From contig CAWCLO010000004.1 of the NCBI GenBank assembly GCA_963796455.1, forward strand, positions 64,001-128,000: DNA of 64,000 bases, given 5' to 3'. Positions within the stretch are counted from its first letter, which is position 1. Every line of letters starts with the position of its first letter. The translations under genes and the position numbers were made by a program. The stretch comes from Candidatus Sulfomarinibacteraceae bacterium (GTDB taxonomy: Bacteria; Acidobacteriota; Thermoanaerobaculia; Thermoanaerobaculales; Sulfomarinibacteraceae). Below, piece by piece: positions 4,047 through 63,348 of this stretch. The notes beneath the pieces are model-generated. The model saw only the letters and a list, made by a program, of their open reading frames with translations. It was not told where the DNA came from and ran no database searches.

Positions 4047-4187
4047 GTGGTCACCGCCGGGTCGTTCAACAGTAAGGGGTAGCCGGTGGGCGGCCGATGT
4101 CAAGGACAGGCAGGGTGCAGGGCATCCTTGACATCGGCCGCCACACCGGCTTGTGGATATGGGCATGAACGACCCGGAGGTGACCAT
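4047..4187 (+). promoter_or_regulatory. Nested double-hairpin leader that sequesters SD and ATG of four-helix gene
   Basis: 4047-4068 pairs with 4166-4187 (contains GGAGGTG and AT of ATG); 4081-4106 pairs with 4125-4151. Confidence 0.7.
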
Positions 4188-4539
4188 GTCCAACGCCGCC
4201 ACGAACACCAACCTCGTTGCCCACTCAAAAGCCCTCGAAGCAGCAGGAATCGCGATCAAGCTGGTGATGAGGGTTCCGGCTCCGCTGAAGTCGATAGCCG
4301 ATCAGGTGATCCGGTCGGCAAGTTCAGTCCCTGCAAACCTGGCAGAAGGTCACGGCCGAGTCGGTAGAGACCGGTCGAACCACTGGAGAATCGCTTACGC
4401 CTCGGCGAAAGAGGTCGACAGCCACTTGGAACTCCTCGCCCACGCCGGGGCGATCAGCCCGAACGGAGCCAGTGAAGCGATGAACGCCTTCGATCAGGTC
4501 CGTGCCATGACTTGGCGACTGTTGAACCCGACGAAGTGA
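4186..4539 (+). CDS. Four helix bundle protein (TIGR02436 / 23S rRNA-IVP / bAvd-like superfamily)
   Basis: DQVIRSASSVPANLAEG and IAYASAKEV motifs; GGAGGTG SD before ATG 4186. Confidence 0.9.
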   Translation: MSNAATNTNLVAHSKALEAAGIAIKLVMRVPAPLKSIADQVIRSASSVPANLAEGHGRVGRDRSNHWRIAYASAKEVDSHLELLAHAGAISPNGASEAMNAFDQVRAMTWRLLNPTK

Positions 4540-4837
4540 GAGCTTTTCACTGGCGCTCTCGCTGCCCCGGCCCCGGCCGCTGTTCGCTGCCGCTGATGAC
4601 TGAACACTGCCCCTGACTACTGTTCCCCGTCGCTGCCCCTGTACGCTGTCCGAGACGCTGTTTTGGAAAAGAGTGCCTCCGGATACCGATTCCAGGGTTT
4701 CGACCCCGCCCGGGGAATTGAGCCGCTCACGTGAACGTAGTTCCAGAGGTCTGACACCTGAAGTCCAGAAAACGGCACCTGGCTCGTTGTAGAATGTCGG
4801 GCATCAAAAACTGCCGAAGAGAACTGGAGCGGCACAC

Positions 4838-10528: not shown

Positions 10529-11251
10529 ATCACTGCCCGAATTGCAGCGATGGCGACAGTGTCCAGCGTCAGCGACAGACAACAGCGAACAGGGACAGCG
10601 GCAGGGAACAGCGACAGAGGACAGCGGCGGCGGCGGCGATCAGGAGTACAGGCGGCGAAGTGGCCACCTCCGGGTCGTTCAAAGGAAGGGGTAGCCGGTG
10701 GGCGGCCGATGTCAAGGACAGGCAGGGTGCAGGGCATCCTTGACATCGGCCACCACACCGGCTTGTGGGAATGGGCATGAACGACCCGGAGGTGACCATG
10801 TCCAACGCCGCCACGAACACCAACCTCGTCGCCCACTCGAAAGCCCTCGAAGCAGCAGGAATCGCGATCAAGCTCGTGATCAGGGTTCCAGCTCCTCTGA
10901 AGTCCATAGCCGATCAGGTAGTCCGATCGGCGAGTTCAGTCCCTGCCAACCTGGCAGAAGGCCACGGCCGATTCGGTAGAGACCGGTTGAACCACTGGAG
11001 AATCGCGTACGCCTCAGCCAAAGAGGTCGACAGCCACTTGCAGCTCCTCGCCCACGCCGGGGCGATCAGCCCGAACGGAGCCAGTGAAGCGATGAACGCC
11101 TTCGATCAGGTGCGTGCCATGACCTGGCGGCTCTTGAATCCGGAGAAGTGAGTGCTGTCGCTGATCGCTGACGCTGACTACTGTTAGCTGTTCACTGTCG
11201 CTGTCGCCGTCCCTGAACGGTAGCCGAGAACCTGTCTTGGACAAGAGTGAT
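10529..11251 (+). mobile_element. Modular element copy B (four-helix core; left end internally deleted)
   Basis: ATCACTG fused directly to CCCGAATTGCAGCG module; right TIR TGTCTTGGACAAGAGTGAT 11233-11251. Confidence 0.7.
10798..11151 (+). CDS. Four helix bundle protein, paralog of 4186-4539
   Basis: 111/117 identical residues by manual comparison; same leader. Confidence 0.9.
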   Translation: MSNAATNTNLVAHSKALEAAGIAIKLVIRVPAPLKSIADQVVRSASSVPANLAEGHGRFGRDRLNHWRIAYASAKEVDSHLQLLAHAGAISPNGASEAMNAFDQVRAMTWRLLNPEK

Positions 11252-49029: not shown

Positions 49030-49080
49030 CCGCTATCTGCGCGGGTTGATTGCCGAATTCGATGCTCGATACTAGATGCT

Positions 49081-49500
49081 GGATCACTGCTGTCCAAAAC
49101 AGATCGTCATGAATTTTCCCACCTGACGACACGTGGTTCGCGGGTTGGTTTCTGGCATATCCAATTCGCAGTTGTCCCGTGCCCGCGTCCGCGTCCGTGT
49201 CCGTGCCCGAATTGCAGCGGCAGCGACAGCGACAGTGTCCAGCGGCAGAGCGACAGAGAGCAGCGACAGCGAACAACACTCACTTCTTCGGGGTTCCGGC
49301 CTTTGTGGTGCGGCCGTCTCGGCCGCACGGTGTGCAGGCGAGACGCCTACACCACCACGGCTGTTCCTTCTGTTGAACGACCCGGAGGTGGCAACTTCGT
49401 CGCCAGTACTACTGACCGCTGCCGCTGGAAACTGAACGCCGCCCCTGATCCCTGACGCTGCGAACTGTCGCTGCCGCTGTAATTTGGGCGCGGACTCGGC
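49081..49500 (+). mobile_element. Modular element copy C (REP-doublet core, inverted)
   Basis: Left TIR GGATCACTGCTGTCCAAAACA; core reads CACTCACTTCTTCGG...TTGAACGACCCGGAGG; ends in inverted M module. Confidence 0.7.
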
Positions 49501-49682
49501 ATCCAGCATCCAGCATCACAGCATCGAGCATCGTGTTGCGGGCGATCTCCCTATCTCCCTTTCTCCTCCGCCCCGGTGCCCCCCTGCCTCACTCCCGCCA
49601 CGATTTTCCTCGGTACCGCCCGACGGACGCCCTCTCCGCACCTGATCGCGTTGTGAAGCTTGGTGATGAAAGGGGGTGTCCC

Positions 49683-50603
49683 ATGCAACAGGACGACCGA
49701 ATTTTTGCAGCGGTGGGTGCGTGTGTGATCGTAGGTGTGACACTGGCTGCGGCCGTCATGTGGCTTGCCTCCGGCATTTCTGTCGAGGCACCACAGAGGG
49801 CGACCGTCGCGGTGAACCGACTGGAGGCGCCGAACCAGGCGACCTCACTGCCGGCCAACCCGGAGGTGGTCGAGGCGAGTTTGAACCTCGACGGGGACGA
49901 CTCGCTGATCAGGTCCTCGCTGGCCCGATTGTCTTCGCACCCCAGGTTCGCCGAGTACCTCGTCAATGATCGATTGCTTCGCCGGTTTGTTGGAACTGTC
50001 GATGCGATCGCGGGTGGTTACAACCCTCGTGACGAGGTCGATTTTATGCGGCCCGTGAGCGACTTCATGGTCCGGGAGGACGAGGGCCGTCTGGTGATCG
50101 CGGCCGGCAGTTTCCGCCGCTACGCAGTGGTTGCCGACACTTTCGCCTCGATCGACAGCGCCGGCTCGGCCGAACTCTACCGGCGTCTCAGCCCGAAACT
50201 CGAAGCTGTCTATCAGGAAATCGGTTGGGGCAGCGACTCATTTGACGACCGCCTCCGGGAAGCGATCGACCACCTGCTCGAAGTCGAGGTTCCGGGAGGT
50301 CCCATCGAGGTCGAGCAGCGATCCATCGTCTACGCATTCGCTGAGGATGAGTTCGAGGGGCTGACCGCCGCTCAAAAACTCCTCGTGCGGATGGGTGACT
50401 CGAATGCACGAAAGGTCCAGAACAAACTGATCGAACTCCGCCAGGCGTTCGGCTGGCCGGATCGCACCATCCCGGTGGTGACGGCGGAGCTGGAAATGCC
50501 GCAGGAACCCGAGATGATTCGTGAGCCGATCGTTGCCGACGCCTCGTCCATCGTGTCCCCGGACCCGATCGAGGAACGGATTGGAGCGCCCGAAGTACCC
50601 TGA
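49683..50603 (+). CDS. DUF3014 domain protein
   Basis: LRRFV..VD.IA.G, FDDRL..AIDHLL, LTAAQKLLVRMG..N. Confidence 0.85.
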   Translation: MQQDDRIFAAVGACVIVGVTLAAAVMWLASGISVEAPQRATVAVNRLEAPNQATSLPANPEVVEASLNLDGDDSLIRSSLARLSSHPRFAEYLVNDRLLRRFVGTVDAIAGGYNPRDEVDFMRPVSDFMVREDEGRLVIAAGSFRRYAVVADTFASIDSAGSAELYRRLSPKLEAVYQEIGWGSDSFDDRLREAIDHLLEVEVPGGPIEVEQRSIVYAFAEDEFEGLTAAQKLLVRMGDSNARKVQNKLIELRQAFGWPDRTIPVVTAELEMPQEPEMIREPIVADASSIVSPDPIEERIGAPEVP

Positions 50604-50615
50604 TCGGGTCGTCGC

Positions 50616-50652
50616 ACCGGGGCGAGGATGGTCCTCGCCCCGGTTTCTTTTT
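50616..50652 (+). terminator. Intrinsic terminator
   Basis: ACCGGGGCGAGGA-TGG-TCCTCGCCCCGGT then TTCTTTTT. Confidence 0.85.
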
Positions 50653-50695
50653 GCCGGCTGGCACTTGTTCGATCAGATGCTGGATACTCGATGCT

Positions 50696-51254
50696 GGATC
50701 AGTGCTGTCCAAAACGAATCGTGACCTGAATCTGGCCGATTGAAAACACGAGTTTCAGGGGTTGGGTTTTGGAGGATCCGGTTCGTCGTTGCCCCGCGCT
50801 GTTCTCGCTTTCTTTTACCGTTTTCGGAGGGAGAAAGAGAGAGCCACCCGGCACCGATCCCGCAGGCACGCGAATGTCGCCTCCCGATGTCATCCTGAGC
50901 GGAGCCCCACAGGGGCGTAGTCGAAGGATCTATGAGATGGGATGTAACGACCTCAGACCGCAGATCCTTCGACTACGCGCAAAAGGCGCTCCGCTCAGGA
51001 TGACATCTTGAAAATATGCAGCCAACCTAAAAAACCCTCCGCGATATGTCACCGGGAGAGCAAGGATCCACACAGGAGGGGGTTTCCGGCCACCGAAGGG
51101 CTGCTGAGGATTCCGATCCCGAAGCGGAAAAAGGGACTGATCGCTGTCGCGGATGACTGAACGCTGCTACTGCCTACTGTTCGCTGACGCTGTCCGCCGT
51201 TCCCTGGCGCTGTCCCTGGACGCCGTCCGAGGCTCTTTCAAGGACAAGAGTGAT
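50696..51254 (+). mobile_element. Modular element copy D (TGTCA palindrome 50886-51007 inside TIRs)
   Basis: Left GGATCAGTGCTGTCCAAAAC, right GGACAAGAGTGAT; CTG-rich right arm. Confidence 0.65.
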
Positions 51255-51264
51255 GCTGAATGCT

Positions 51265-51520
51265 GGATCCACCCAACCGCGCACGCTGCAGACCGCAGAT
51301 AACGCAGATAGACGCGGATGACCGGGCCGGGCTTGCCGTTGACATCGGCTGACCACCGGCTACTCCTTTCGTTGAACGACCCGGAGGTGGCCACATTGCC
51401 GTCTGGACTCCTGACCGCTGGCGCTGACTCACTGTACTGTCTGATCACTGTCGCTGCCGCTGGAACTTGTCCCTGTCGCTGCAGACCCCGCAATAGAGGG
51501 TTCGCAGATAACGCGGATAT
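51265..51520 (-). repeat. Half-element D' fused to CGCAGATAA-type 9-mer repeats
   Basis: 51265-51420 is the reverse complement of ~59850-60007. Confidence 0.8.
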
Positions 51521-51589
51521 CACATTGGACAAGTTGCAGTCGGTGTGACTGAACCTACGCTTTCGAAAGCGATGGCGTAGCGCGATCCG

Positions 51590-52555
51590 CTAACCACCAT
51601 TCATGAGCCGCCACACGGCGACCCAGGCCGGAAGGGTCATGCTGCAGGCGAGATATGAAAGAAACATCACCGTGCCGACCCGCTCCTCATTGCCACCATA
51701 GCTTCGGACCTGGAGCACCAGGCCCACAGCGGGAGCCGACGCTGCCTCAATCACAAAAAAATCTGCCAGCAGGGGATTGACGGCATAGAGATTGAATTGA
51801 TGAAGAAGGATGATGGTCAGGGCGGGCAACAACAGGAGCTTGACTCCGAGGGCGCGGACCGCATCGCCCGCAAAGGGAAGGAATCGGACGCCGATACCGC
51901 CCAGAACCGCTCCCAAAACCAGGGTCGCCACGGGGACCGCAGCGGTACCCAGGAGATCGACGGCGGCCACGACCGGTTTGGGAATGAGAGCCGAGGCTCC
52001 GGTCAGGGCGACACCGATCGCAACGATGTTCGCGACCAGAGGAGGTGTCACGAGATCGCGGAGGCGGGTCTTCTGCCGGCCATCGCCGGAGATCAGCGTT
52101 TTTCCCAGGCTCCAGAGAATCGGGTTGTAACCGAGGATGAAAAGAAAAACGTAGAGCGCAAAATCATCGAATTGCCCGGGAAACAGAGCGAGGCCGATGG
52201 GCAGGACGAAGTAGCCGGCGTTCTGCATCCCGGCGACCGGAATGAGATCTTTCTTCTCCGGGAGTTGGTTGCTGAATACAAGGGCACCAAGAGCTGTACC
52301 AACCAAGGCCATGGCGGCGCCGGCCAGAGGCAATATCCACCACTGCGGAAGCGCCTTGGGGTCGAGGTTTTCGACGACGTTGGAAAAGATCAGACAGGGC
52401 AGAAAGATCTGGACGGAGGCCGTTGAGAGGCCGGTAATCTGGTTCTGGGTGATGACACCCCGACGAACCAGAAAACCCGCGATCAGGATGACGAGGAATA
52501 TCCCTGCGATCGCGGATACGGTCGCCCCGAAGGAGGCAGTCAGAGCTTGAACCAT
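51590..52555 (-). CDS. AEC (auxin efflux carrier) family transporter
   Basis: FLPCLIF, QNAGYFVLP, TPPL, VKLLLLP; ~10 TM. Confidence 0.88.
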   Translation of the reverse strand: MVQALTASFGATVSAIAGIFLVILIAGFLVRRGVITQNQITGLSTASVQIFLPCLIFSNVVENLDPKALPQWWILPLAGAAMALVGTALGALVFSNQLPEKKDLIPVAGMQNAGYFVLPIGLALFPGQFDDFALYVFLFILGYNPILWSLGKTLISGDGRQKTRLRDLVTPPLVANIVAIGVALTGASALIPKPVVAAVDLLGTAAVPVATLVLGAVLGGIGVRFLPFAGDAVRALGVKLLLLPALTIILLHQFNLYAVNPLLADFFVIEAASAPAVGLVLQVRSYGGNEERVGTVMFLSYLACSMTLPAWVAVWRLMNGG

Positions 52556-52582
52556 CGTGACAGTCTCGATTCCTGATTGATT

Positions 52583-53197
52583 TCAGGGGGTCAGCGGACG
52601 CATGCGGACGAATTGTTCCATCGAATAGACTTCGACGCCGTCTCGAACGATCCGCATGGAGACCGGGGCCCCGGCAAGATCGCTGGCAAAGAAAAACTCG
52701 TTGACCACACCCGGTTCATCCCCTGCGACCGTGTAAAGCCACCCCTCGTGAACACCGAGATCAGTGTCTCGCGTGACCCATTCTCGTGACGAAGTGGCTG
52801 CCGGAAAGCTTGCATGGTCGCGGAGTTCCGTCCAATCGGCGCGCTGTACGCTCTTTTCTCCAACAACTTCCTGGTTTTCATCGAGGGTGGAGTACTCGAT
52901 TTCAACACCCGTTTCATCTGCCTGAACGACAGTCCAGAGTTTGACCGTCGAACCGTCGGTATGGGTTTCCCGGACCATGAGGCGAAGGCCAACCACCATC
53001 TCCGCGCGGATCTGTTCTGCGGTGAACGGTCGCCTCAGGATGGTCGAATCCTCCGGGTCGAGTTCGTAGACGGTGGCAGAGGTTTTTCCCGCCGTCGTTT
53101 CCCTGGTTTCCGAATCGACATCCTGGTTCGCAGGGTTGCCACAGGCGCCGCACATCGTGATGGCCACGGCGAGAGTGATCAGAGCTCTTTTCGGCAT
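52583..53197 (-). CDS. Hypothetical lipoprotein
   Basis: AAGGAGG SD; lipobox GAC; acidic beta-rich body. Confidence 0.65.
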   Translation of the reverse strand: MPKRALITLAVAITMCGACGNPANQDVDSETRETTAGKTSATVYELDPEDSTILRRPFTAEQIRAEMVVGLRLMVRETHTDGSTVKLWTVVQADETGVEIEYSTLDENQEVVGEKSVQRADWTELRDHASFPAATSSREWVTRDTDLGVHEGWLYTVAGDEPGVVNEFFFASDLAGAPVSMRIVRDGVEVYSMEQFVRMRPLTP

Positions 53198-53469
53198 TCT
53201 GTCCTCCTTGGACACGGCGCGTGGAAGTGTAACGTCCGACCCTCGAAGTGACAAATCTCGAAACCCGGCTCGGGAAGAGGCCGAGCCCTCGATGAGTTCG
53301 CGGTTCGTAAGGTCCTTCTCGGTTGCCGGCCGAGGACCGGCTCAAGGCATCGCCCCGGTCGGGAATCAACCTGAGGCCCGGCTGTTTTTATAAGACACGG
53401 ATTGATGTGTAACCTGGCGGGTCTGACAGCGTATTGATACTTAAGATCAAGAAAACGAAGGAGACGATC

Positions 53470-54249
53470 ATGGCAAACGCAACAGACAACGGCAGTTTTG
53501 TCTGGTACGACCTGATGACGGGCGAGCCGGATGCCGCGGAAGGGTTTTATAAAGAGTTGATCGGGTGGGGAACCCAGCCCTTCGAAGGCGGTGACAAGCC
53601 CTACACGATGTGGACGAACGCCGAGAAACCACTCGGCGGGGTGATGGAGCTGCACGACGAGGCCCGGGAAGCCGGTGCGCCGCCGCACTGGATCGCCTAC
53701 ATTTCGGTGGATGACGTGGATGTTATGGTCGCCCGCACGACAGAACTCGGCGGCGAGGTGCTTCATCCGGCGACGCAGGTCCCGAACGCGGGGAGTTTTG
53801 CCGTGCTGGCCGATCCCCAGGGAGCGGTCTTTGCGATCTACCAGGGAGCCGGTTCGAGCTCGAGCCCCGCGGCGGCTCCAGGAGTGGGTGATTTTTCCTG
53901 GCATGAATTGGTCACCTCTGATTACAAGGGGGCCCTGCAGTTTTATTCGGAGCTCTTTGGCTGGAAGGCCGATGAGGCGATGGATATGGGAGATGCCGGA
54001 ATTTACCAGATCTATGGTCACGGCGGCGCGCCCCTTGGAGGTATGTTCAACAAACCGGCTGAGATGCCCGGGCCTCCGATGTGGCTCTATTACATCTCGG
54101 TCAAGGATGTGAAGGATTCAGTCGAGAAGGTGAAGGCTCTCGGCGGCCAGGTCGTCAACGGACCGATGGAGGTCCCCGGTGGCGACTTGATCGCACAGTG
54201 TTTTGACCCCCAGGGGGCCTTCTTCGCGCTCCACTCGAAAGCGAGTTGA
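53470..54249 (+). CDS. Two-domain VOC / glyoxalase family protein
   Basis: FVWYDL, FY.EL.GW twice, DPQGA twice. Confidence 0.92.
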   Translation: MANATDNGSFVWYDLMTGEPDAAEGFYKELIGWGTQPFEGGDKPYTMWTNAEKPLGGVMELHDEAREAGAPPHWIAYISVDDVDVMVARTTELGGEVLHPATQVPNAGSFAVLADPQGAVFAIYQGAGSSSSPAAAPGVGDFSWHELVTSDYKGALQFYSELFGWKADEAMDMGDAGIYQIYGHGGAPLGGMFNKPAEMPGPPMWLYYISVKDVKDSVEKVKALGGQVVNGPMEVPGGDLIAQCFDPQGAFFALHSKAS

Positions 54250-54320
54250 AGACACGCTTCGGATCGGTGCATCGAGCCCATACGGGATGATGTCGTGCGA
54301 CAATTGCGGCGGGAGATTCA

Positions 54321-56246
54321 ATGAAAAAAGTGTTCTGTCTGTTACTCGCACCGTTGCTCGTCGGTATGGTGTGTTGGGCCGATGGCGCTCCGGTGGCGGT
54401 TCGCGTCGAGGTGCAACCGGTAGCCGCCGCCGAGACCGGAACCCGGGTCGAGGTGATGATCCAGGTTTCACCCGAGGACCGGGGACGGCTCGGCCGGAAC
54501 GCGATGGTTCGTATCGAGCTCGATGGTGGCGTTCCACCCGGGCAGAGCCCTTTGTGGGCGGTCAGGATCGAGGATGACGGGAGTGCTGTGGTTAAAACCG
54601 TGTGGCCCCCCGGCGAACACGTTCTGACCGTTTCGATTGAGAGCTCGAACCGGCTCCATACCGGTCTATGGGTGGGTCAGGTTCGGGTTCCCGATTATGG
54701 ATCCGCCGGCGTTCAATCTGTTGTTCAGCCGAAACCACCGGAACAACCGGATCCACAACCTGCACCGGAACCGCCGGAATTGGAATCCGAGAGTCCGCAA
54801 TCAGAAACAGCCGCAACCGCTGCCGTAGTGGCGGCCGAGGTTGTGGATCAGACCGGGGACATCGAAGGTCGGGATGAGCCCGTGGATATGACGATCGAGG
54901 TAGAACGGCCGGAGGTGGAGTCGGCGCCGAGCGAGGATGCCGAACCGCTGCAACCGCCGGCTGCCGGGCTGCCGGCTGCGGCAGCGGTTGTTGCCGCTTC
55001 ACCGTCCGTTGAAACCGAAAACCAGGAGCGGCCTCCTGCCGAAGCAGCGACAGCCCCTGTGATCGATGAAGCGGTTGCAGACGAACCCATTGAAGAAACG
55101 CAGCCACCGGAAGTTGCCACTGTGGTGGCCGCAGGCACTGCCGCCGCTCTGTCCGCCTCGTCGGATCGGGAGGAGCCGACGGAATCGCAGCCTGATACAG
55201 CGCCGGTAGTCGAGCCGAAAGAGAGCCTACCGGCGTTGGAAGGAAGTGTGGAGCCGGTCGCTGCGGCTGCCGTGGCTGCTGTACCGCCCGACGACAGTGT
55301 GGTTGAAGAAAAAATGCCGGTGGTCGAAGCCGATTCCGAATCCATTGCGGAGCCAGTGTCGGCAAAGGCTGAGGATCTGGTGGTTCAACCGCTGCGAGGG
55401 GAAGAGGCTGTCGCCGAGATCGCGGAGCCTGAGCCTGAAGCCGTGGTGTTGTCGCCGGATCGAGTATCAGCCTATGGGAGTTGGATGGAGGCCGATGACG
55501 CGACCAAGGACCTGACGATTGTCGTGACCAGGAATCGGGAACCGGTTTCGGGTCTCGAACCAGAGGACCTGCGGTTACGGCTCGACAAGGTCGATGTGCC
55601 GATCGCCCGGCTCGGCGATCGAAATCACGCCCCGTTGTTGCTTGGTTTTGCGGTTGATATGTCGCCGGCGGTCGCCGGGTCGTGGAGCCAGACGGGGCGC
55701 GGGCTCGATCCGCTCCTCAGCCGGGCCGGCGGTGGTCGAGGCAGGTTCTTCGTCGCGACAACCGGCGAATCCTCCGACTGGGATGCCGATCCTGATCGGT
55801 TGACCGATGCGCTGAGCGTTCCGATGGGCGGAAATCTCGGCCGACTGATCGCCTCATCGCTGGCTCGTTTTGAAGGCCAACAAGGGCGGTCCTTCCTCCT
55901 CGTGGTCACCGACGGGCGATCTGAAGTGTCCAAAGAAGACTGGCAGGCGGCGACGGATGCTGTAGAGGGGACCGGAGTGCCACTGCTCGTGATCGCCCTG
56001 TGGGACGATCTGTTCAGCAAAAAGGTCCGCAAGCAGCTCTCGCAGCTTGCAGATGAAAGTGGTGGTCGGTTGTTCCTTGCCCAGGGAGCGGATCAGTTGG
56101 CTGCAGCGGTCGAGCGTTACGGCCCGTTGCTCGATGCGGGTGTGGCCCTGAGATATCTTCCCCCGGGAGGTGATCGGGCGCACAACGTATCAATCTCCGC
56201 AACCGACTCCGGAGTGCAGATCTCGGCTCCCAGGAGTACGCGCTGA
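54321..56246 (+). CDS. Secreted protein with long Ala/Pro/Glu linker and C-terminal VWA-like domain
   Basis: Signal peptide; AVDMS, LLVVTDG, LADESGGR. Confidence 0.7.
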   Translation: MKKVFCLLLAPLLVGMVCWADGAPVAVRVEVQPVAAAETGTRVEVMIQVSPEDRGRLGRNAMVRIELDGGVPPGQSPLWAVRIEDDGSAVVKTVWPPGEHVLTVSIESSNRLHTGLWVGQVRVPDYGSAGVQSVVQPKPPEQPDPQPAPEPPELESESPQSETAATAAVVAAEVVDQTGDIEGRDEPVDMTIEVERPEVESAPSEDAEPLQPPAAGLPAAAAVVAASPSVETENQERPPAEAATAPVIDEAVADEPIEETQPPEVATVVAAGTAAALSASSDREEPTESQPDTAPVVEPKESLPALEGSVEPVAAAAVAAVPPDDSVVEEKMPVVEADSESIAEPVSAKAEDLVVQPLRGEEAVAEIAEPEPEAVVLSPDRVSAYGSWMEADDATKDLTIVVTRNREPVSGLEPEDLRLRLDKVDVPIARLGDRNHAPLLLGFAVDMSPAVAGSWSQTGRGLDPLLSRAGGGRGRFFVATTGESSDWDADPDRLTDALSVPMGGNLGRLIASSLARFEGQQGRSFLLVVTDGRSEVSKEDWQAATDAVEGTGVPLLVIALWDDLFSKKVRKQLSQLADESGGRLFLAQGADQLAAAVERYGPLLDAGVALRYLPPGGDRAHNVSISATDSGVQISAPRSTR

Positions 56247-57056
56247 CTAGATAATTCGTTCGTGGAGCGCTCTCGAAACCGCCTCGAGGCGGTTGGCCGC
56301 ACCAAGAGTTCGCAGAATTCCCTGGATGTGGGTCCGCACGGTGTGAACGCTGATGCAGAGCTCCTCGGCGATATCCCGCGACCTCTTGCCCTCCGCCATC
56401 AGCAGCAGGACCTCGAGCTGACGACGAGTGAGGTGGGGTTGTTTTCGCGTGCCACGCTGGTCGGCGCCGCTCGGAGCGTTGGTGCCGGGAACGGTCACCC
56501 CGGGGATATTGGTCTGGGCAAGGAGGCGGTCGATCGCTTCGTCGGCCCGCCGGCGGCGGTGCATGGGAGTCATGAGATAGACCAACGTGTAGTCGCTCGA
56601 GCGGGGACCCAGGACGACCACAATTGAAACTGCGATTCGCAACATCTTTCCGGTAGCCGTGATGATGGCGAGTTCAAAACTCTGGGGAGCCTCGCCGATG
56701 CGAATCATGTCGTGGAATGCCCCGTGTTTTGCGGAAAGGCGATTGCCGTGAACATCCCGGGCTTGGATCACTTGCTGCAGATTGCGTCCGATGACATCCT
56801 CCGCAGAAAATCCGAAGAGTTCGACCGCAGCGGCATTCCATTGCACGATCGTATTGTCGGGATCCGCGGCAACAGCCGCCCGGGAGGCGTTTTCAACGAT
56901 GGTCGGCACGTTCGGAAAGGCAACCGGAACTTCGGCCGGCGCCCGCCGTCGTCGCGAACTCGGGGAGATTTCGTGGACGTTGTCAGGCAGGGCCTGAGTT
57001 CCTTTCGTGCTCCCTGGAGCGCCTTTTTTTTGCCTCGGTTTCTTGGGCACCGTCAT
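56247..57056 (-). CDS. PAS + LuxR HTH transcriptional regulator
   Basis: WNAAAVELFG..EDVIG; LTRRQLEVL, SVHTVRTH. Confidence 0.9.
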   Translation of the reverse strand: MTVPKKPRQKKGAPGSTKGTQALPDNVHEISPSSRRRRAPAEVPVAFPNVPTIVENASRAAVAADPDNTIVQWNAAAVELFGFSAEDVIGRNLQQVIQARDVHGNRLSAKHGAFHDMIRIGEAPQSFELAIITATGKMLRIAVSIVVVLGPRSSDYTLVYLMTPMHRRRRADEAIDRLLAQTNIPGVTVPGTNAPSGADQRGTRKQPHLTRRQLEVLLLMAEGKRSRDIAEELCISVHTVRTHIQGILRTLGAANRLEAVSRALHERII

Positions 57057-57213
57057 ATCTCCGTCAGTGACTTCTCTCGAGTCTCAGCCTCTTTTTGCCC
57101 TCCAAGGCAATCTACCTGTGTATATTTTATCATCCGTATTGGGTGTTCAGCCCGTCAAAGAGGTTCGAAACGCTCTTTCAGCATTGTCGCGCTGTCCGAC
57201 GAAGGGATGAGCT

Positions 57214-58584
57214 TTGAGTGAATCAACGAAATCTGCAGCTGGGAATGCGACCGATCCAGGCGTGGGTTCATCGCTGCCGATTCCGGCAATCGTGGCGTCG
57301 CTGGTGTCCATCGCGGTGATCGTTGGAGGGTTTTACGGCTACCGGTCCGTTGCCGGCGATGAAGCCAAAAACCACCTCGTCATCGCCACCGGGCCGGAGA
57401 CCGGAACCTACCACGCTCTCGGTCTTGCTCTGGCGCGGGTCCTCGAGGCCGAACAGATCGTCGTCTCCACCGAGATCAAGACCACCGGCGGCAGCGTGGC
57501 CAATATGGACCTCATCGGGGGTGCCGGGGAAGGATCCGATCTCGCTTTTGTTCAGGGCGACACTCCGGCCAACAGCCGGGTTCAGCTCCTGACTCCGCTG
57601 TATGACGAAGTGCTTCACATCCTCGTCCGCAAGGAAATTGCTGCAGAGATCGATGACATTACCGGTCTGAACGGGCTGCGCCTCTCCCTGGGCAACAGTG
57701 GATCCGGAACCCGACAACTCTCGGAAAGGGTGCTCGGTCATTTTGGAGTAAAGCCCGGTGTCGATCTCGAAATGACTCCAGCCGAGGCGGCGGAGGCCCT
57801 CCTCGACGGTTCGATCGACGGGCTTTTCGTATTGAATGCGATTCCGTCGCGAATGATTGACGAGCTCACCGCGGTGGATGCGGTTCGCTTCGTCTCGTTC
57901 GGCAATGCCCAGGAACAGGGCAATGAGGCCGATGGCATTTCGATGGTCTTTCCGAGCATTCGTGCGACCACGATTCCGCGCGCAACCTACCACCTCCTGC
58001 CGCAGGCGCCGGTGAGCACCATTGCGGTTTCGGCCCTTTTGGTGGCGGATCGGGATCTCGATCCGCTCCTCGTCCGCAAGATCACCGAAGCGGTGTTCGA
58101 AAACCGATCCGGCAGCGGCGGCCTCGAGGGACAGGAACTGGTGGTGGCGCGGAGGATTCGTGAGGATTTCCGCCCATCGTCCTTTGCGATTCCCTACCAC
58201 GACGGGGCGGTGAGTTATTACCGTCGCGAAGATCCTGCCTTTTTTGTGGAATACGCCGAGGCTATCAGTCTCGGTCTGACCCTGTTGGTGGGTTTGTACT
58301 CCGGTTATATCGCGCTTCGCGAGTGGATGCGCCGGCGGATGAAAAACCGGATTGACGCCTACCTCCTGGAGATCGAGCACGAGTCCTCCAACCTCCGGGA
58401 ACTGTCTTTGGAAGAGCTTGTACAGCACCGGGACGCGCTCGATGGAATCCGTCACCGGGCCTTTTCCGATCTGGTCAACGAACGGCTCTACGCTGATGAA
58501 TCATTCTCTATTTTCCAGAACCATCTCCGGGACGAGTTTGCAGCCATCGAGGCGCGAATCGCGGAGAAGGAGCGGCTGGTCTGA
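57214..58584 (+). CDS. TAXI family solute-binding protein with extra C-terminal TM and helical tail
   Basis: IATG..GTY, T.GSVAN, GSGT, PYHDGA..YY. Confidence 0.85.
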   Translation: MSESTKSAAGNATDPGVGSSLPIPAIVASLVSIAVIVGGFYGYRSVAGDEAKNHLVIATGPETGTYHALGLALARVLEAEQIVVSTEIKTTGGSVANMDLIGGAGEGSDLAFVQGDTPANSRVQLLTPLYDEVLHILVRKEIAAEIDDITGLNGLRLSLGNSGSGTRQLSERVLGHFGVKPGVDLEMTPAEAAEALLDGSIDGLFVLNAIPSRMIDELTAVDAVRFVSFGNAQEQGNEADGISMVFPSIRATTIPRATYHLLPQAPVSTIAVSALLVADRDLDPLLVRKITEAVFENRSGSGGLEGQELVVARRIREDFRPSSFAIPYHDGAVSYYRREDPAFFVEYAEAISLGLTLLVGLYSGYIALREWMRRRMKNRIDAYLLEIEHESSNLRELSLEELVQHRDALDGIRHRAFSDLVNERLYADESFSIFQNHLRDEFAAIEARIAEKERLV

Positions 58585-58593
58585 GCCCGGACC

Positions 58594-59493
58594 ATGAATA
58601 AGGCAACATCATTGTTTTTCTTGCGGGTTCTTGCTGTTGTGGTGCTTGCCGCCGGATGTGCAGCAGATGACCCGGCTGGCCCATCCCCGGATCTCGAAAA
58701 AGCCCAGTATGAGTTGCTCAGGGTCATCGACGTGGCCGGACGGCAGGGGATTGCAACCGATGGCGTCCACTATTTTGTCAGCGGGAGCACGGCCCTCTAC
58801 GTCTATTCCAAGGACGGCGAATTGTTGAAGTCCAATGAGGAGCCCTTTGCCGACCTCGAAAAACCTGCCAACCACATCGGCGATATCAGCGTGCACGATG
58901 GCAAGCTCTTTACCGGAATCGAGTGGTTCGAAGACGGGCGTGGGCATGATATCCAGATTGCGATCTACGACAGCGAGACTCTGAGCTATGAACATTCGGT
59001 TCTTTGGGACCCTGAATCGGGTCAGGTGGAAGTGAGTGGTTTGGCGGTCGATGTGGAGAATGGCTTGTTGTGGATGACCGATTGGGTCGACGGAAGATAC
59101 CTCTATCGCTACGAAATCTCGAGTGGGGCCTATGTTGGTAAGCTGCATCTGCGCCCAGTACCACAGTGGCAGCAGGGGATTGCCGCCTATCGAGGCTCGC
59201 TCTACATCACTGCCGACGACGGAGATGCGGAAGACGGTGAGTCGGACAATCTCTGGAAAGTCCGCGCCGATCCCCTTGCGTCAGCCGCCTACCTGACCCA
59301 CGAAAAAACATTCGACGATTTTCGCGACGTCGGCGAGATCGAAGGCATTGCGTTTGACCGAGCGGCCGGCGAGATGCTGGTGTTGGCGAACCGAGGCAAA
59401 CGGATCGTGCTCGGGATGCCGAAGGGTCTGTATCCCGGCTACGAGCGGGAGATCCACGAGGTGTACGTCTACAGGCTGCCGCAAGAACGCTGA
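58594..59493 (+). CDS. Hypothetical lipoprotein, probable beta-propeller
   Basis: Lipobox AAGC; repeated QGIA/EGIA strands. Confidence 0.7.
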   Translation: MNKATSLFFLRVLAVVVLAAGCAADDPAGPSPDLEKAQYELLRVIDVAGRQGIATDGVHYFVSGSTALYVYSKDGELLKSNEEPFADLEKPANHIGDISVHDGKLFTGIEWFEDGRGHDIQIAIYDSETLSYEHSVLWDPESGQVEVSGLAVDVENGLLWMTDWVDGRYLYRYEISSGAYVGKLHLRPVPQWQQGIAAYRGSLYITADDGDAEDGESDNLWKVRADPLASAAYLTHEKTFDDFRDVGEIEGIAFDRAAGEMLVLANRGKRIVLGMPKGLYPGYEREIHEVYVYRLPQER

Positions 59494-59548
59494 CCCAGCC
59501 CGGATGCCGGATTTGGCAGGGCATGGCCTGTAGGGAGAAAGCGGAGAA

Positions 59549-60007
59549 ACCGCAGATCACGCAGATAAACGCAGATAGGCCATCGCAGTCGCTCTCGTGG
59601 CAAGCACGATTGCCCACAGACCACACAGAAAAACACGGAATGAACCGCAAAGAGCGCTACGAACGCAACGTCGTAGAGACGCTAAGGCGCGGTTACCTCC
59701 TGCCTGCGCCTGAGCCCGAGACCGTGCCCGAATTGCAGCGCAATCACAGGATTCAGGGGCAGGGCCAGTGTCCAGCGACAGCGACAGGCAACAGCGAACA
59801 GGGACAGCGACAGGCAACAGCGGTCAGCGATCAGTAGTCAGCGATCGGCGGCAGCGGTCGGGAGTCCAGTCGGCGAAATGGCCACCTCCGGGTCGTTCCA
59901 AGGAAGGGGTAGCCGGTGGGCGGCCGATGTCAACGGCAAGCCCGGCCCGGTCATCCGCGTCTATCTGCGTTATCTGCGGTCTGCAGTGTGCGCGGCTGGG
60001 TGGATCC
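59549..60007 (+). repeat. Half-element F enclosed by inverted CGCAGAT 9-mer tracts
   Basis: 59549-59577 and 59953-59980; M module, CAG arm and half leader between them. Confidence 0.8.
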
Positions 60008-60031
60008 AGAATCCAGCATCCAGTATCGAGT

Positions 60032-60552
60032 ATCACGGCTGTCCAAAACAAATCGTCATGTGAGGTTGCGCACATGAAAACACGACGTTTGCGGGTCGGT
60101 TTTTGGAAAATTCCGTTCACGGTTGCCCGTGTGCTTGCCCGAATTGCGGCGGCAGCGACAGTGTCCAGGGGCAGCGACAGGGATCAGCGATCAGGGGCAG
60201 CAATCAGGTGCAGTGACGGCGTGATCACCTCCGGGTCGTGCAACAGAAGGAACAGCCGCTGTGGTGTCGGCGTCTCGCCTGCCCACCGTGCGGCCGAGAC
60301 GGCCGCACCACCAAGGCCGGATCCCCGAAGAAATGAGTGCGGTTTACTGTCCCGGCCGCTGATCGCTGACGCTGACGACTGAACACTGCCGCTGGCGACT
60401 GGTCGCTGCCGCTGCCCCTGATCGCTGTCCGATACTTCCCCGCCTGGGCTGGGTGATCCAGCCAGCGGGACACAACTCTGAAGGTGGGCCAATGCCCACC
60501 TTCAGGGCCGTTCCTGAACGCTATCCGGGACTCTGTCTTGGACAAGAGTGAT
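60032..60552 (+). mobile_element. Modular element copy E (complete TIRs, REP-doublet core)
   Basis: ATCACGGCTGTCCAAAACA ... TGTCTTGGACAAGAGTGAT; ATCGAGTATC overlaps both ends. Confidence 0.75.
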
Positions 60553-60567
60553 CGAGTATCGACCGAG

Positions 60568-61284
60568 TTACGGCACGCGGAGGACCAACTCGCCCCGGCC
60601 GTCCCGGAGTATCACCCGATCGGTCTCGATCGTCTCGACGACGAATCCTTCGACCTCGGAGCCTACATAGACGTCCCTACCGTTGATTTCGGCAAAGGGG
60701 TTTGTGGAGCGAACCACGATGTATCCCAGGCTCAGTTTGGCGTAGCCGAGATCGGCATCGAGCACAAAGACCCTTTGGCCCGCTTCGTTCACCCTGGGTG
60801 CGGGACGTTCGGCCGGCGTCTGTGGTTGAGCTGCCTCCGGTTCGGGGACATCGCCCGCCGGCGAACCACCCGGATTGTCACCGCCCCCATCGACGGCTAC
60901 CGCAGGGTTGGGAGGCGACGCTTCCACCTCGGAATCGGCCCGGCTGGAGAGCCCTTCCTCGGGCATGGCACTTGAGTCTCTGAGTCCCTGGTCCTCGGGC
61001 CCGGCAACTCCGGGCGCAACCTGAGTGGTGGAGGGCTCGGCCACAGCAATCTCCTGGACCGGGTTGTCCGGCGTGGGGTTGCGGCCGAGAATCCACCACG
61101 CTCCAACCGCACCGGCACCGGCGGCGGCGATCGAAAGCAGGACCAGACCAAAGGCTCCAGATCGTTTTCGAGGGCCGCGGGAGGGGTAGGCGACGGGCGT
61201 ACGGAACGCGGTGTCTGTTTCCCGCTCCTCGTGCTCAGCAGCCGCCTGACGGGCCTTGCGCAAGGCGTCGTTGATCAGGCTCAC
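60568..61284 (-). CDS. GspB/ExeB-like protein
   Basis: GTG-SLINDALRKA start, TM, Pro-rich linker, AEING..VG..VEG. Confidence 0.75.
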   Translation of the reverse strand: MSLINDALRKARQAAAEHEERETDTAFRTPVAYPSRGPRKRSGAFGLVLLSIAAAGAGAVGAWWILGRNPTPDNPVQEIAVAEPSTTQVAPGVAGPEDQGLRDSSAMPEEGLSSRADSEVEASPPNPAVAVDGGGDNPGGSPAGDVPEPEAAQPQTPAERPAPRVNEAGQRVFVLDADLGYAKLSLGYIVVRSTNPFAEINGRDVYVGSEVEGFVVETIETDRVILRDGRGELVLRVP

Positions 61285-62093
61285 CAGCCCTGCCCTTCGA
61301 GATCGCGGACGGCGCGTCGCACCTGCCACCAGCCGAGGTGATCCCGGTTCTGGACAAAGCCGCAGAGCAGGGTCTTGTCGCACACGGCGTTGATGAGCCG
61401 CGGTACGCCACGCGCATAGCCGTGAATGGCGAAATAGGCGGGCCGGCTGAAAGAGGGTCGTCCGTTCGATCCGGAAATCAACAGCCGGTGCTGAATATAG
61501 GCAACGGTTTCCTGACGGCTGATGCGTCCGAGGTGGTAGCGGACAGTGATTCGTTGCCGTAGCTGACGGAGTTCCTTGCGGTCGAGGCGGTCTCTCAGCT
61601 CGGGTTGCCCGATGAGCACGATCTGGAGCAGCTTGTGCTGGTCGGTCTCGAGATTGGACAGGAGGCGCACCTGCTCGAGCAAATCGTCGGACATATCCTG
61701 TGCTTCATCGATGAAGAGAACGACTGCATTCCCTTCGTGGGCCTGTTCGAGCAGGAAATCGTTGAGGCGATCGACGAGCCGGATGCGATCGTTGCCGCTG
61801 TCGTCGAGGCCGAGCTCGCGGAGGACTGATCGCATCAATTGAATTGGGGTCATGACCGGGTTGAGGATCAAGGCCGTCGAGTAGCCGTCGCGGAGCTCTT
61901 CGAGCACCTTGCGGCATAGAGTGCTCTTACCGGCCCCGACCTCACCCGTGATCTGGATGAAGCCCTTGCGTTCGCTGACGCCAAAGAGGATGTGTTCGAA
62001 AGCCTGCCGGTGGCGACGGCTGAAGAACAGGTACCGGGGATCCGGTGTGATATTGAACGGCGGGGCCTTGAGGCCGTAATAATCCTGATACAT
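61281..62093 (-). CDS. GspA/ExeA family AAA ATPase
   Basis: YYGL..PF.ITPDP, GEVGAGKS, IDEAQ, GQPEL, GVPRLIN. Confidence 0.92.
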   Translation of the reverse strand: MYQDYYGLKAPPFNITPDPRYLFFSRRHRQAFEHILFGVSERKGFIQITGEVGAGKSTLCRKVLEELRDGYSTALILNPVMTPIQLMRSVLRELGLDDSGNDRIRLVDRLNDFLLEQAHEGNAVVLFIDEAQDMSDDLLEQVRLLSNLETDQHKLLQIVLIGQPELRDRLDRKELRQLRQRITVRYHLGRISRQETVAYIQHRLLISGSNGRPSFSRPAYFAIHGYARGVPRLINAVCDKTLLCGFVQNRDHLGWWQVRRAVRDLEGQGW

Positions 62094-62155
62094 CGTGTTG
62101 AATGGCCATCCGACCAATCGAGCCGGGGTTGGCGATTGATTGTACCCGCTCTCGG

Positions 62156-62866
62156 CTATTGGGTAGCCGTCTCCGCCCGCAAACCTTGAACGTTGGCATA
62201 TGTGAAGACGGCGCAGAGGATCAATATCCACCACTGACCGCCCTGCAGGGCCCAGAGGCCGAAGAACACGGTCAGAACGATCGACAAGACCCTCGCGGCG
62301 ATGCGACCGCGGCGACCGGCAACCATCTCCGCCACCGCGGACGCGATGTGGCCGCCATCCATCGGCAGGATGGGGAGCAGATTGAGCACGCCCCATCCGA
62401 GGTTGACCCAAACCGCCATATCGAGGACACGGATCATGGCCGGAGGGGCGCCGTTGAGGACGCCGAGCCATCCCATGGCGAGGATCGAAACGCCGATCAC
62501 GATCCCTACCGCCGGCCCTGCGGCGCTGATCAGAATCTGTTGTCGGGATGTCAGGGGGCGCGGCCGGCTCCAACCCGTCAACCCGCCAAAGGCGATGAGC
62601 TGGATCCACGGTTCGAGACCCATGCGCCGGCCGGCAAATGCGTGGCCGAGTTCGTGGGCGAGGACACCGGTGAAGACCATCACGACCCACACGATCATCC
62701 ACTGTGGTTCCTGCCGGCCGCCGATGAGCCAGGCAGTGACAAAGAAGAACGGCTCGATCCGCAGCGGGAAGCCGAAGATCTGCAATCCGCGAGAACGCTC
62801 GCGTTGCGGCGGGTAGCCGTTGTTCTGAATTCCTGGCTCGTGCAGACCGTGGTTGTTGGAGTCCAT
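62156..62866 (-). CDS. M50 family site-2 metalloprotease
   Basis: HELGH, AGP, NLLPILPMDGG. Confidence 0.9.
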   Translation of the reverse strand: MDSNNHGLHEPGIQNNGYPPQRERSRGLQIFGFPLRIEPFFFVTAWLIGGRQEPQWMIVWVVMVFTGVLAHELGHAFAGRRMGLEPWIQLIAFGGLTGWSRPRPLTSRQQILISAAGPAVGIVIGVSILAMGWLGVLNGAPPAMIRVLDMAVWVNLGWGVLNLLPILPMDGGHIASAVAEMVAGRRGRIAARVLSIVLTVFFGLWALQGGQWWILILCAVFTYANVQGLRAETATQ

Positions 62867-62885
62867 AGGTGGTCAGTATTGCACG

Positions 62886-63348
62886 GCACCTTTCTCCGAG
62901 ACAGAGTCTCGGACAGCTTTCAGGGACATCGACAGGGAACGGAAGACGGCGTCAGCGAACAGGAGTCAGGGGCAGCGGTCAGCGGCAGCGTCAGTGTCCA
63001 GCGGCAGCGACAGGCAACAGCGAGCAGGGACAGCGACAGTGATCAGCGGCAGCGGTCAGGAGTCGGGGCGACGAAGTGGCCACCTCCAGGTCGTTCAACA
63101 GAAGAAACAGCTGTTGTGGTGTAGGCGTCTCGCCTGCACACCGTGCGGCCGAGACGGCCGCACCACAAAGGCCGGAGCCCCGAAGAAGTGAGTGCTGTTC
63201 GCTGTCCCGGCCGTTGATCGCTGACGCCGATGACTGAACGCTGATGCTGACTACTGTCCACTGTCCCTGCTTGCCGTCCCTGTCGCTGACGCTGGACACT
63301 GTCGCTGCCGCTGCGATTCGGACGCGGACGCGGACGCGGACACGGGAC
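62886..63348 (-). mobile_element. Modular element copy G (shell reversed, REP-doublet core forward)
   Basis: Right-end module reverse-complemented at 62886-62927; M module reversed at 63288-63348; core on + strand. Confidence 0.7.

Follow-up and report, generated by a model that had tools for sequence, protein, structure and literature searches.

The window analysed here, a stretch of 64,000 nucleotides from a Candidatus Sulfomarinibacteraceae bacterium (assembly GCA_963796455.1, contig CAWCLO010000004.1, positions 64,001 to 128,000), includes several copies, named A to G, of a repeated cassette. In the gene form of the cassette a conserved upstream sequence, the anchor, is followed by a hairpin and a gene for a protein of 117 amino acids (aa). 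In the short form both are replaced by a doublet of repetitive extragenic palindromic (REP) units. A preliminary description of the window had read the short form as a precise swap of content in a defined cargo slot. The results point instead to one probable replacement and later copying of whole elements.

Short cassettes in the window and in the genome

Direct reading of copies C, E and G confirmed that all three retain the anchor as well as the last codons and the stop of the gene. These read CCG AAG AAG TGA GTG in copies C and G and CCG AAG AAA TGA GTG in copy E, as compared with CCG GAG AAG TGA GTG in the gene-bearing copy B. Between the anchor and the last codons there are about 76 bp in short copies and about 454 bp in copies with the gene, which agrees with the doublet-containing segment of about 75 bp described earlier in the place of about 450 bp. 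Also the quoted doublet sequence was found exactly, at positions 63114–63168. The anchor (GGTCGTTCAACAGAAG) is present without mismatches in copies C and G and with one mismatch in copy E (Table 1), and with two mismatches in both copies bearing the gene (4060 and 10673) and in one that is truncated (51366). Altogether the anchor has six matches in the window against 0.04 expected, and the first REP unit three (49332–49357(-), 60259–60284(+) and 63114–63139(+)) against 0.00 expected. The sequence common to the copies extends beyond the quoted anchor, on the left side to AGCCG and on the right side from CCCG.

The assembly comprises 5.02 Mb in 10 contigs, is 90.5% complete and repeat-rich, and looks metagenome-derived. 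A search of the whole genome for the anchor with up to three mismatches gave 174 matches. Of these, 70 are doublet forms and 60 gene forms, 30 have an internal deletion and 14 are of other kinds; the counts depend on the motif thresholds. The last 14 were truncated cassettes, fusions with other repeats, and two matches in coding DNA that are due to chance. Five further doublet forms were found without a recognisable anchor. The spacing from the start of the anchor to the start of the right anchor was 93–95 nt in 60 and 469–472 nt in 42 copies of the 174 anchor matches. The amplification of a gene-less derivative, which had been proposed from three copies, is thus supported by 70 short forms, as classified by content, and the earlier figure was an undercount.

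The doublet forms showed one orientation and one pair of left and right junctions in all 70 copies. At the left junction AGCCG is followed by TTGTGG, and at the right junction GGCCGGAGCCCCG by AAGAAGTGA. Mean identity was 87% over 126 nt among the doublet cores (a divergence of about 0.13 per site) and 90.5% over 492 nt among the gene-form cores. The doublet family is therefore old, but younger than the gene family when judged by synonymous sites.

The positions of the cassette copies in the window, including the ends of insertion sequence (IS) 4 type and the REP doublets forming hairpins (REPINs) described below, are given in Table 1.

Table 1. Positions of the cassette copies and their parts in the window.
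Copy	Feature	Position	Strand	Basis
C	End of the gene (last codons and stop) with the beginning of the right arm (CCCCGAAGAAGTGAGTG, read on the - strand)	49277..49295	-	sequence reading
C	REPIN: head-to-head pair of REP hairpins, spacer 3 nt	49303..49357	-	motif match and reading
C	Upstream anchor	49367..49382	-	motif match; leader structure of the gene form
E	Complete short cassette, 517 bp: IS4-type left end, end module of ~110 nt, left repeat arm, anchor (60234-60249), REPIN (60259-60313), stop remnant (60325-60339), right arm, right end	60034..60550	+	sequence reading and motif matches
E	Perfect 9-bp target duplication, ATCGAGTAT	left 60025..60033, right 60551-60559		sequence reading
G	Short cassette, no recognisable left end: left arm, anchor (63089-63104), REPIN (63114-63168), stop remnant (63180-63194), right arm	62935..63335	+	motif matches, reading and fold
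B	Gene form: anchor, conserved hairpin, sequestered ribosome-binding site, gene of the 117-aa four-helix-bundle protein	10673..11157	+	coding sequence 10798-11151
B	Stop end, CCG GAG AAG TGA GTG	11143-11157	+	sequence reading
A	Second gene form	4060..4545	+	coding sequence 4186-4539
D	Truncated cassette: left arm, anchor and the hairpin's 5' half, fused to foreign sequence	51330..51470	-	sequence reading
F	Truncated cassette, junction identical to that of D, inverted orientation	59780..59990	+	sequence reading

The gene form and the nature of the anchors

The 117-aa gene product matched PF05635 (56.3 bits) and TIGR02436 (58.6 bits), the four-helix-bundle family of 23S rRNA intervening-sequence proteins. 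The frame is intact in 54 of the 60 gene forms, and the mean pairwise nonsynonymous (dN) and synonymous (dS) divergences were 0.057 and 0.363, respectively (dN/dS 0.156, 1431 pairs). The gene forms are under purifying selection, which is unusually strong for dozens of paralogues of a gene without a known function.

The upstream anchor is the 5' strand of a 17-bp stem that is invariant among the 23 leaders compared, which come from the window and five congeners. The 3' strand of the stem is the region of the ribosome-binding site just before the ATG, and in the hairpin between the two strands compensatory changes preserve the pairing at 10 pairs. The anchor of the doublet form is orphaned, because the 3' strand of the stem left together with the gene. 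The right 'anchor' runs from the last four codons through the stop into the beginning of the right arm. The anchors are not the boundaries of a slot, and the right one is simply the place where the replacement rejoined the cassette.

About 20 gene forms (e.g. C3:330672 and C1:1250610) have an alternative end after reference position 458 (…CCGAAGTCTTGATTTCAGGGCCCC…). This end resembles the one of the congener G006, so that two types of 3' end coexist.

The REP doublet and a RAYT gene

The doublet at 63114–63168 reads TTGTGGTG-TAGGCGTCTCGCCTGCAC / ACC / GTGCGGCCGAGACGGCCGCAC-CACAA, and its arrangement was the same in all 70 short forms. Each REP half has a 9-bp stem and a 3-nt loop, with TTGTGG before or CCACAA after it, and the halves are inverted and 3 nt apart. 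In the fold of copy G both units form hairpins at the tip of the element. REPINs, as well as the REP-associated tyrosine transposases (RAYTs), are defined in passages of Bertels and Rainey 2011 (PMC3337134); by that definition the doublet is, on its sequence, a REPIN, and its mobilisation by a RAYT is putative.

A RAYT is encoded by an open reading frame (ORF) of 207 aa without internal stop, on contig C1 at about 952.6–953.2 kb (L006, ORF 1357–1980(-)). It matched NF047646 'REP-associated tyrosine transposase' at 80.6 bits (cut-off 80), PF01797 (Y1_Tnp) at 24.3 bits and the Escherichia coli TnpArep structure (PDB 4ER8) at E = 4e-7, and includes the HUH-type motif HVH. REPs of the cassette type adjoin it on both sides in inverted orientation.

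The REP units of the cassette family had 177 matches in the genome, 107 of them in flagged cassettes and 70 elsewhere. About 29 of the 70 outside units come from another composite repeat, whose basis is a variant of the REP. In the approximately 29 copies of this repeat a tail-to-tail doublet of the variant REP TGGTGGTGCAGCCGTCCCGGCTGCAC lies between CACAGAA-type arrays (C4:786927, C4:789613, C1:2515, and a partial copy near 59600–59700 of the window). The same variant also flanks a second Y1-transposase match at C4:210157–210318.

Within the short form conservation is highest in the REP units, whose majority frequency is 0.94–0.99 as compared with 0.70–0.93 around them. This may reflect constraint, continuing recognition by the RAYT, or plain stem stability.

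Ends, arms and surroundings of the cassettes

Both forms are long fold-backs, in which an arm of degenerate 6–7-nt units that end in CAG is paired to the complementary sequence opposite. The fold energies were -233 kcal/mol for copy G and -335 kcal/mol for the gene form of copy B, with z near -8.8 for both, and copy G is predicted to fold into one long hairpin with the two REP hairpins at its tip. A scan of the window with Rfam at gathering thresholds detected no family.

Outside the arms there are inverted ends of 18 nt (CACTCTTGTCCAAGACAG and variants), which had 265 matches genome-wide. Pairs of these ends enclose 300–580 bp or 780–895 bp, the only gene inside being that of the 117-aa PF05635 protein, with no transposase. 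The same 18-nt ends (18/18 for one end) bound an IS in the congener G017 (L095, 1016–2426, 1411 bp), which encodes an ORF of 425 aa matching NF033592 'IS4 family transposase' at 251 bits. Among the copies with both ends, which were the only ones scored, the flanking 9-mers matched in at least eight of nine positions in 11 of 23 copies with the REPIN, 10 of 22 with the gene and 4 of 6 with a deletion, and in the control the flanks of different copies matched at 10.6%. Passages of PMC2266710 give target duplications of 8–13 bp for the IS4 subgroups, and a duplication of 9 bp fits this family.

The cassettes are surrounded by 7-nt units with GAT at the end (GCTGGAT, ACTAGAT and others), arranged in inverted arrays, for example in the window at 49040–49085, 49490–49535 and 59990–60033. 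Many of the duplications read ATGCWGGAT; either the element prefers arrays ending in GAT or it helps to make them.

Another core was found in IS4-ended shells, a palindrome on GATGTCATCCTGAGCG, which belongs to a separate family with 209 arm matches; the left arm and the anchor are missing in these shells. In the window, at about 50697–51257, IS4-type ends and the end module surround a palindrome built on GATGTCATCCTGAGCGGAGC. The palindrome family is mostly situated outside IS4-ended shells, in many cases with arrays on both sides, for example of GGGAGAAA or CGCTATCG.

In the whole genome only copies D (51290–51470 -) and F have CGGCAAGCCCGGCCCGGTCATCCGCG joined to a cassette whose hairpin is interrupted in its 5' half. 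These face each other in inverted orientation about 8.6 kb apart, with seven ORFs between them, and the pair may point to an inversion or to a composite unit.

Internal deletions of the gene form

The 30 internal deletions of the gene form had 21 pairs of junction coordinates, which were reduced to about 16 distinct junctions when pairs within 4 nt were merged. Most of the junctions show an overlap of 1–14 bp between the two sides. For 29 deletions the left breakpoint was resolved, and 23 of these breakpoints were at reference positions 21–41, where the native hairpin has its 5' base. The left junction of the REPIN, at reference position 28, is inside this hot spot. Plain loss of this segment has thus occurred many times. 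Retention of the hairpin is not supported as an explanation for the success of a form, as the deletions keeping the native hairpin are present in 1–2 copies and the largest class without it in nine.

Comparison with congeners

The composite of anchor, doublet and stop remnant scored 1e-45 or better in this genome, and was found in none of the 24 congeners at E <= 1e-18. The protein of the gene form had matches in 15 of 18 congeners, three of which had 54, 45 and 20 gene matches, and the gene forms of the congeners share the anchor and the 3' end. Fifteen anchors lacking a partner nearby were read in relatives: 11 were deletions or truncations, two had the hairpin with a gene or its remnant, two were chance coding matches, and none of the 15 had a REP doublet. 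The gene-less copies, which were read in four relatives, include one class with at least three copies in G006. A query search of the congeners gave a match in 17 of the 18 first sampled; among the matches listed, only the doublet part was found and never the anchors. Compact doublets with spacers of 0–1 nt were read in several congeners, and the flank of the doublets there, AGGACGAACTCCCCCGAAAG, is only loosely like the right flank in the cassette. The REPIN chimera thus appears to be restricted to one species among those searched.

Downstream of a TonB-like gene this genome has the doublet form, G005 no cassette, and G014 the gene form in the same orientation. With a flank identity of 73–76%, shared ancestry and independent insertion are not separable at this site. 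The gene form of G014 (L091, contig C1 890400–893400), oriented as copy C, is situated between arrays of AACGTTN units and is without IS4-type ends.

Origin of the short form

The family of about 70 copies probably goes back to one occasion on which a REPIN replaced the hairpin and the gene of an IS4-ended cassette at the base of the hairpin, the whole product then being amplified in trans. In such a course of events the native hairpin would stall replication or be cut, and most of the repairs would be simple deletions by microhomology. Once, an end would have copied or invaded a REPIN, likewise a hairpin, with a stem base like that of the native hairpin in this species, and would have been rejoined at CCCG just before the stop. 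The reaction could have been template switching or break repair with microhomology, on the left CG and then GTGG, on the right CCCG. The product, still having the arms and the ends, would have remained movable by an IS4-family enzyme in trans, and at 430 bp may have spread at least as well as its parent of 855 bp. The two backbone types described below would have come from recombination between copies through the invariant anchor.

The number of founding events was judged from the arms. The doublet core was found behind both left-arm types, defined by the bases just before the anchor (34 T1 and 32 T2; with the gene, 9 T1 and 50 T2). On the left- and right-arm trees, built to see whether the doublet forms are one clade but weak as the low-complexity arms aligned poorly, the cargo label changes 30 and 24 times, compared with about 41–48 and 33–43 times in the shuffles listed. 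A single origin accordingly needs recombination at a later stage, which counts against it. The core on both backbones is a point in favour of a slot; it would have been moved there either by recombination between copies or by a second identical event, and the latter would need the same loss of 450 bp together with three changed bases, GGAACAGCCG in place of GGGGTAGCCG. The core variants are linked to the arm type (T2-TA-A-AG in 13 copies and T1-TC-C-AA in six, a minority being mixed), as is expected if whole elements are copied. The founding event would have been single in the history that we infer: one replacement, early recombination with a gene form via the anchor, which is invariant, and later multiplication of entire elements along two lineages or more.

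Some further observations are difficult for a single replacement spread by an IS4-family enzyme. No transposase with the ends of the cassette was found in this genome assembly (90.5% complete), the only PF01609 (DDE_Tnp_1) match in the genome has different inverted repeats, and the G017 transposase used as query gave no match in it; the IS4-family partner may be missing from the assembly or have been lost. Both ends were recognisable in only 23 of the 70 REPIN forms, and two of the three window copies lack one. Many insertion sites carry ATGCWGGAT within heptamer arrays, which raises the number of chance flank matches (10.6% in the control). The congeners are only about 73–76% identical in the flanking genes. 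Finally, a stand-alone doublet on contig C3 at about 335.26 kb, with the same 3-nt spacer and the same 13-nt right flank GGCCGGAGCCCCG, could be a donor, a derivative or a cassette fragment, and no donor locus or intermediate was identified. As a candidate for the autonomous partner, inverted-repeat pairs 1–5 kb apart were looked through; the five pairs found enclose ordinary genes, and no transposase was recognised among them.

The defined cargo slot, in which the anchors would be recombination boundaries and the cargos exchanged site-specifically, is improbable to a high degree. It would agree with junctions identical in 70 of 70 copies, with the same core behind two left-arm types also found with the gene, and with shells bounded by inverted repeats which elsewhere hold another core, the GATGTCATCCTGAGCG palindrome. 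Yet the palindrome core has other breakpoints and its family (209 arm matches) is mostly outside IS4-ended shells, and only one foreign cargo, with one junction pair, uses the junctions in question. The remaining gene-less forms are deletions with about 16 junctions, the relatives show deletions only, and the role of the left anchor is that of one half of a stem with the ribosome-binding site. When the sequences between both anchors were collected, no second foreign cargo was found, which is essentially the outcome that the preliminary description had itself named as contradicting a slot. Several unrelated cargos between the same boundaries, as in a slot or an integron-like system, were thus not found in the genome census, nor in the relatives with their deletions. 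The precise replacement with both flanks kept and the amplification of the gene-less form stand, and the slot is not supported. Repeated events driven by the RAYT, in which the REP-like base of the native hairpin (GGTGGGCGGCCGA compared with GGTGCGGCCGA) would have received a REPIN several times with the gene lost each time, are unlikely as well. No copy has both the REPIN and the gene, nor the REPIN at this place with another right junction, and independent events are not expected to delete the same 450 bp and to share the changed bases GGAACAGCCG. Also the linkage between arm type and core variant is like that of clonal lineages. The RAYT ORF of 207 aa is nevertheless apparently intact, conservation of the short form is highest in its REP units, the core is on both backbone types, and the REP-like stem base is present in this genome and not in G006, which reads GGTGGCCATTCGA; all these are on the side of the RAYT.

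The reverse direction, with the REPIN-tipped hairpin as the original empty shell into which the hairpin and the gene were inserted later, is very improbable. The short form keeps the last codons and the stop of the gene, and gene forms that agree in the anchor and the 3' end are spread through the genus, the protein in 15 of 18 congeners and the composite in none of 24. Also the dS of the gene, 0.36, is higher than the divergence of the short cores, about 0.13 per site; only the slightly higher number of short forms, 70 compared with 60, would fit an original shell. That the pattern is a chance resemblance or an artefact of assembly is scarcely credible, even with a repeat-rich, metagenome-like assembly of 10 contigs. 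The motif counts are far above those of shuffles, the 70 copies are diverged and lie in unique flanks, and short contigs from public runs span both junctions with 0–3 differences, both in a DNA run (X1, records 5 and 6) and in an RNA-library run (X15, records 9 and 13), which can contain DNA and hence says nothing on transcription; one of the DNA runs may be the source sample. In none of the public runs were as many as half of the words found. No empty cassette site was found among these short contigs, which break in the repeat and leave parts uncovered.

About 60% of the detected units of the cassette REP family now ride in IS4-ended cassettes. It is tentatively suggested, as a rather doubtful extension, that the REPIN was freed from its own RAYT by capture at the hairpin tip of another transposon, and that the hairpin base was a structure-directed point of module exchange. 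As the best-conserved part of these cassettes, the REP hairpins could have taken over the cis-role of the native hairpin, or could still be recognised by the RAYT.

Relation to known systems

Integron gene cassettes are the kind of system which a cargo slot implies. Like these, the present cassettes have a conserved frame with contents differing between copies; the difference is that there is one foreign content, the other variants being deletions, and an attC-like site or an integrase was not looked for. ORF-bearing intervening sequences of the 23S rRNA are reportedly known from Leptospira and Coxiella. With these the gene forms alone share a PF05635 protein within a long stem of flanking inverted sequence, whereas the cassettes are located between protein-coding ORFs and not in rRNA, and have transposon ends and target duplications, and the window had no Rfam match.

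The likeness to REPINs and RAYTs, as far as the passages of PMC3337134 describe them, includes the two inverted REPs with a short spacer, the hairpin folds, a REP family flanking a RAYT gene with an HUH motif, and dispersed, extragenic REPs in a family persisting across the genus. In those passages REPINs are free-standing units moved by the RAYT, whereas here 107 of 177 REP units are at the tip of an IS4-ended element and apparently copied with it. With MITEs (miniature inverted-repeat transposable elements) and the mobile insertion cassettes (MICs), such as MIC231 of the IS231/IS4 family listed in PMC2266710, the cassettes share IS4-type terminal inverted repeats, the lack of a transposase, a high copy number, the 9-bp target duplication, and a passenger gene (gene form) or none (short form). 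They differ from them in the long inner inverted arms of 6–7-nt repeats, the four-helix-bundle passenger behind a structured leader, a short-form core captured from a second, unrelated transposition system, and a cognate transposase found only in a congener. Also bacterial interspersed mosaic elements, which are mosaic clusters of REPs mentioned in passages of PMC3184786, are like the cassettes in combining REPs and other short motifs in fixed arrangements. IS1397 and IS621, given there as IS elements targeting REPs, are like them in linking REPs to insertion sequences; in these cases the IS is inserted into the REP, whereas here a REP doublet replaces the cargo of an IS-derived shell. Papers describing a REPIN within a MITE or MIC, or PF05635 cassettes with repeat arms, did not come up in a limited literature search, which is not proof of absence. 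New here are the recognition of the gene-less core as a REPIN connected with a RAYT, the genome-wide counts, the deletion series with its hot spot and the limitation of the chimera to one species among those searched.

The cassettes link two kinds of repeats that are usually treated apart, the REP/REPIN elements and the IS-derived miniature elements, and indicate that a foreign shell can carry and multiply a population of REPINs. A natural series for rearrangement provoked by hairpins is formed by the gene form in its intact state, about 16 types of deletion and a single type of replacement. For annotation, 'anchors' common to repeat variants can be orphaned halves of RNA or DNA stems and not necessarily recombination sites. 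The finding also bears on the role of the multi-copy four-helix-bundle (Avd/IVP-like) gene, of which there are 54 intact, selected paralogues, yet the gene-less copies have spread equally well or better.

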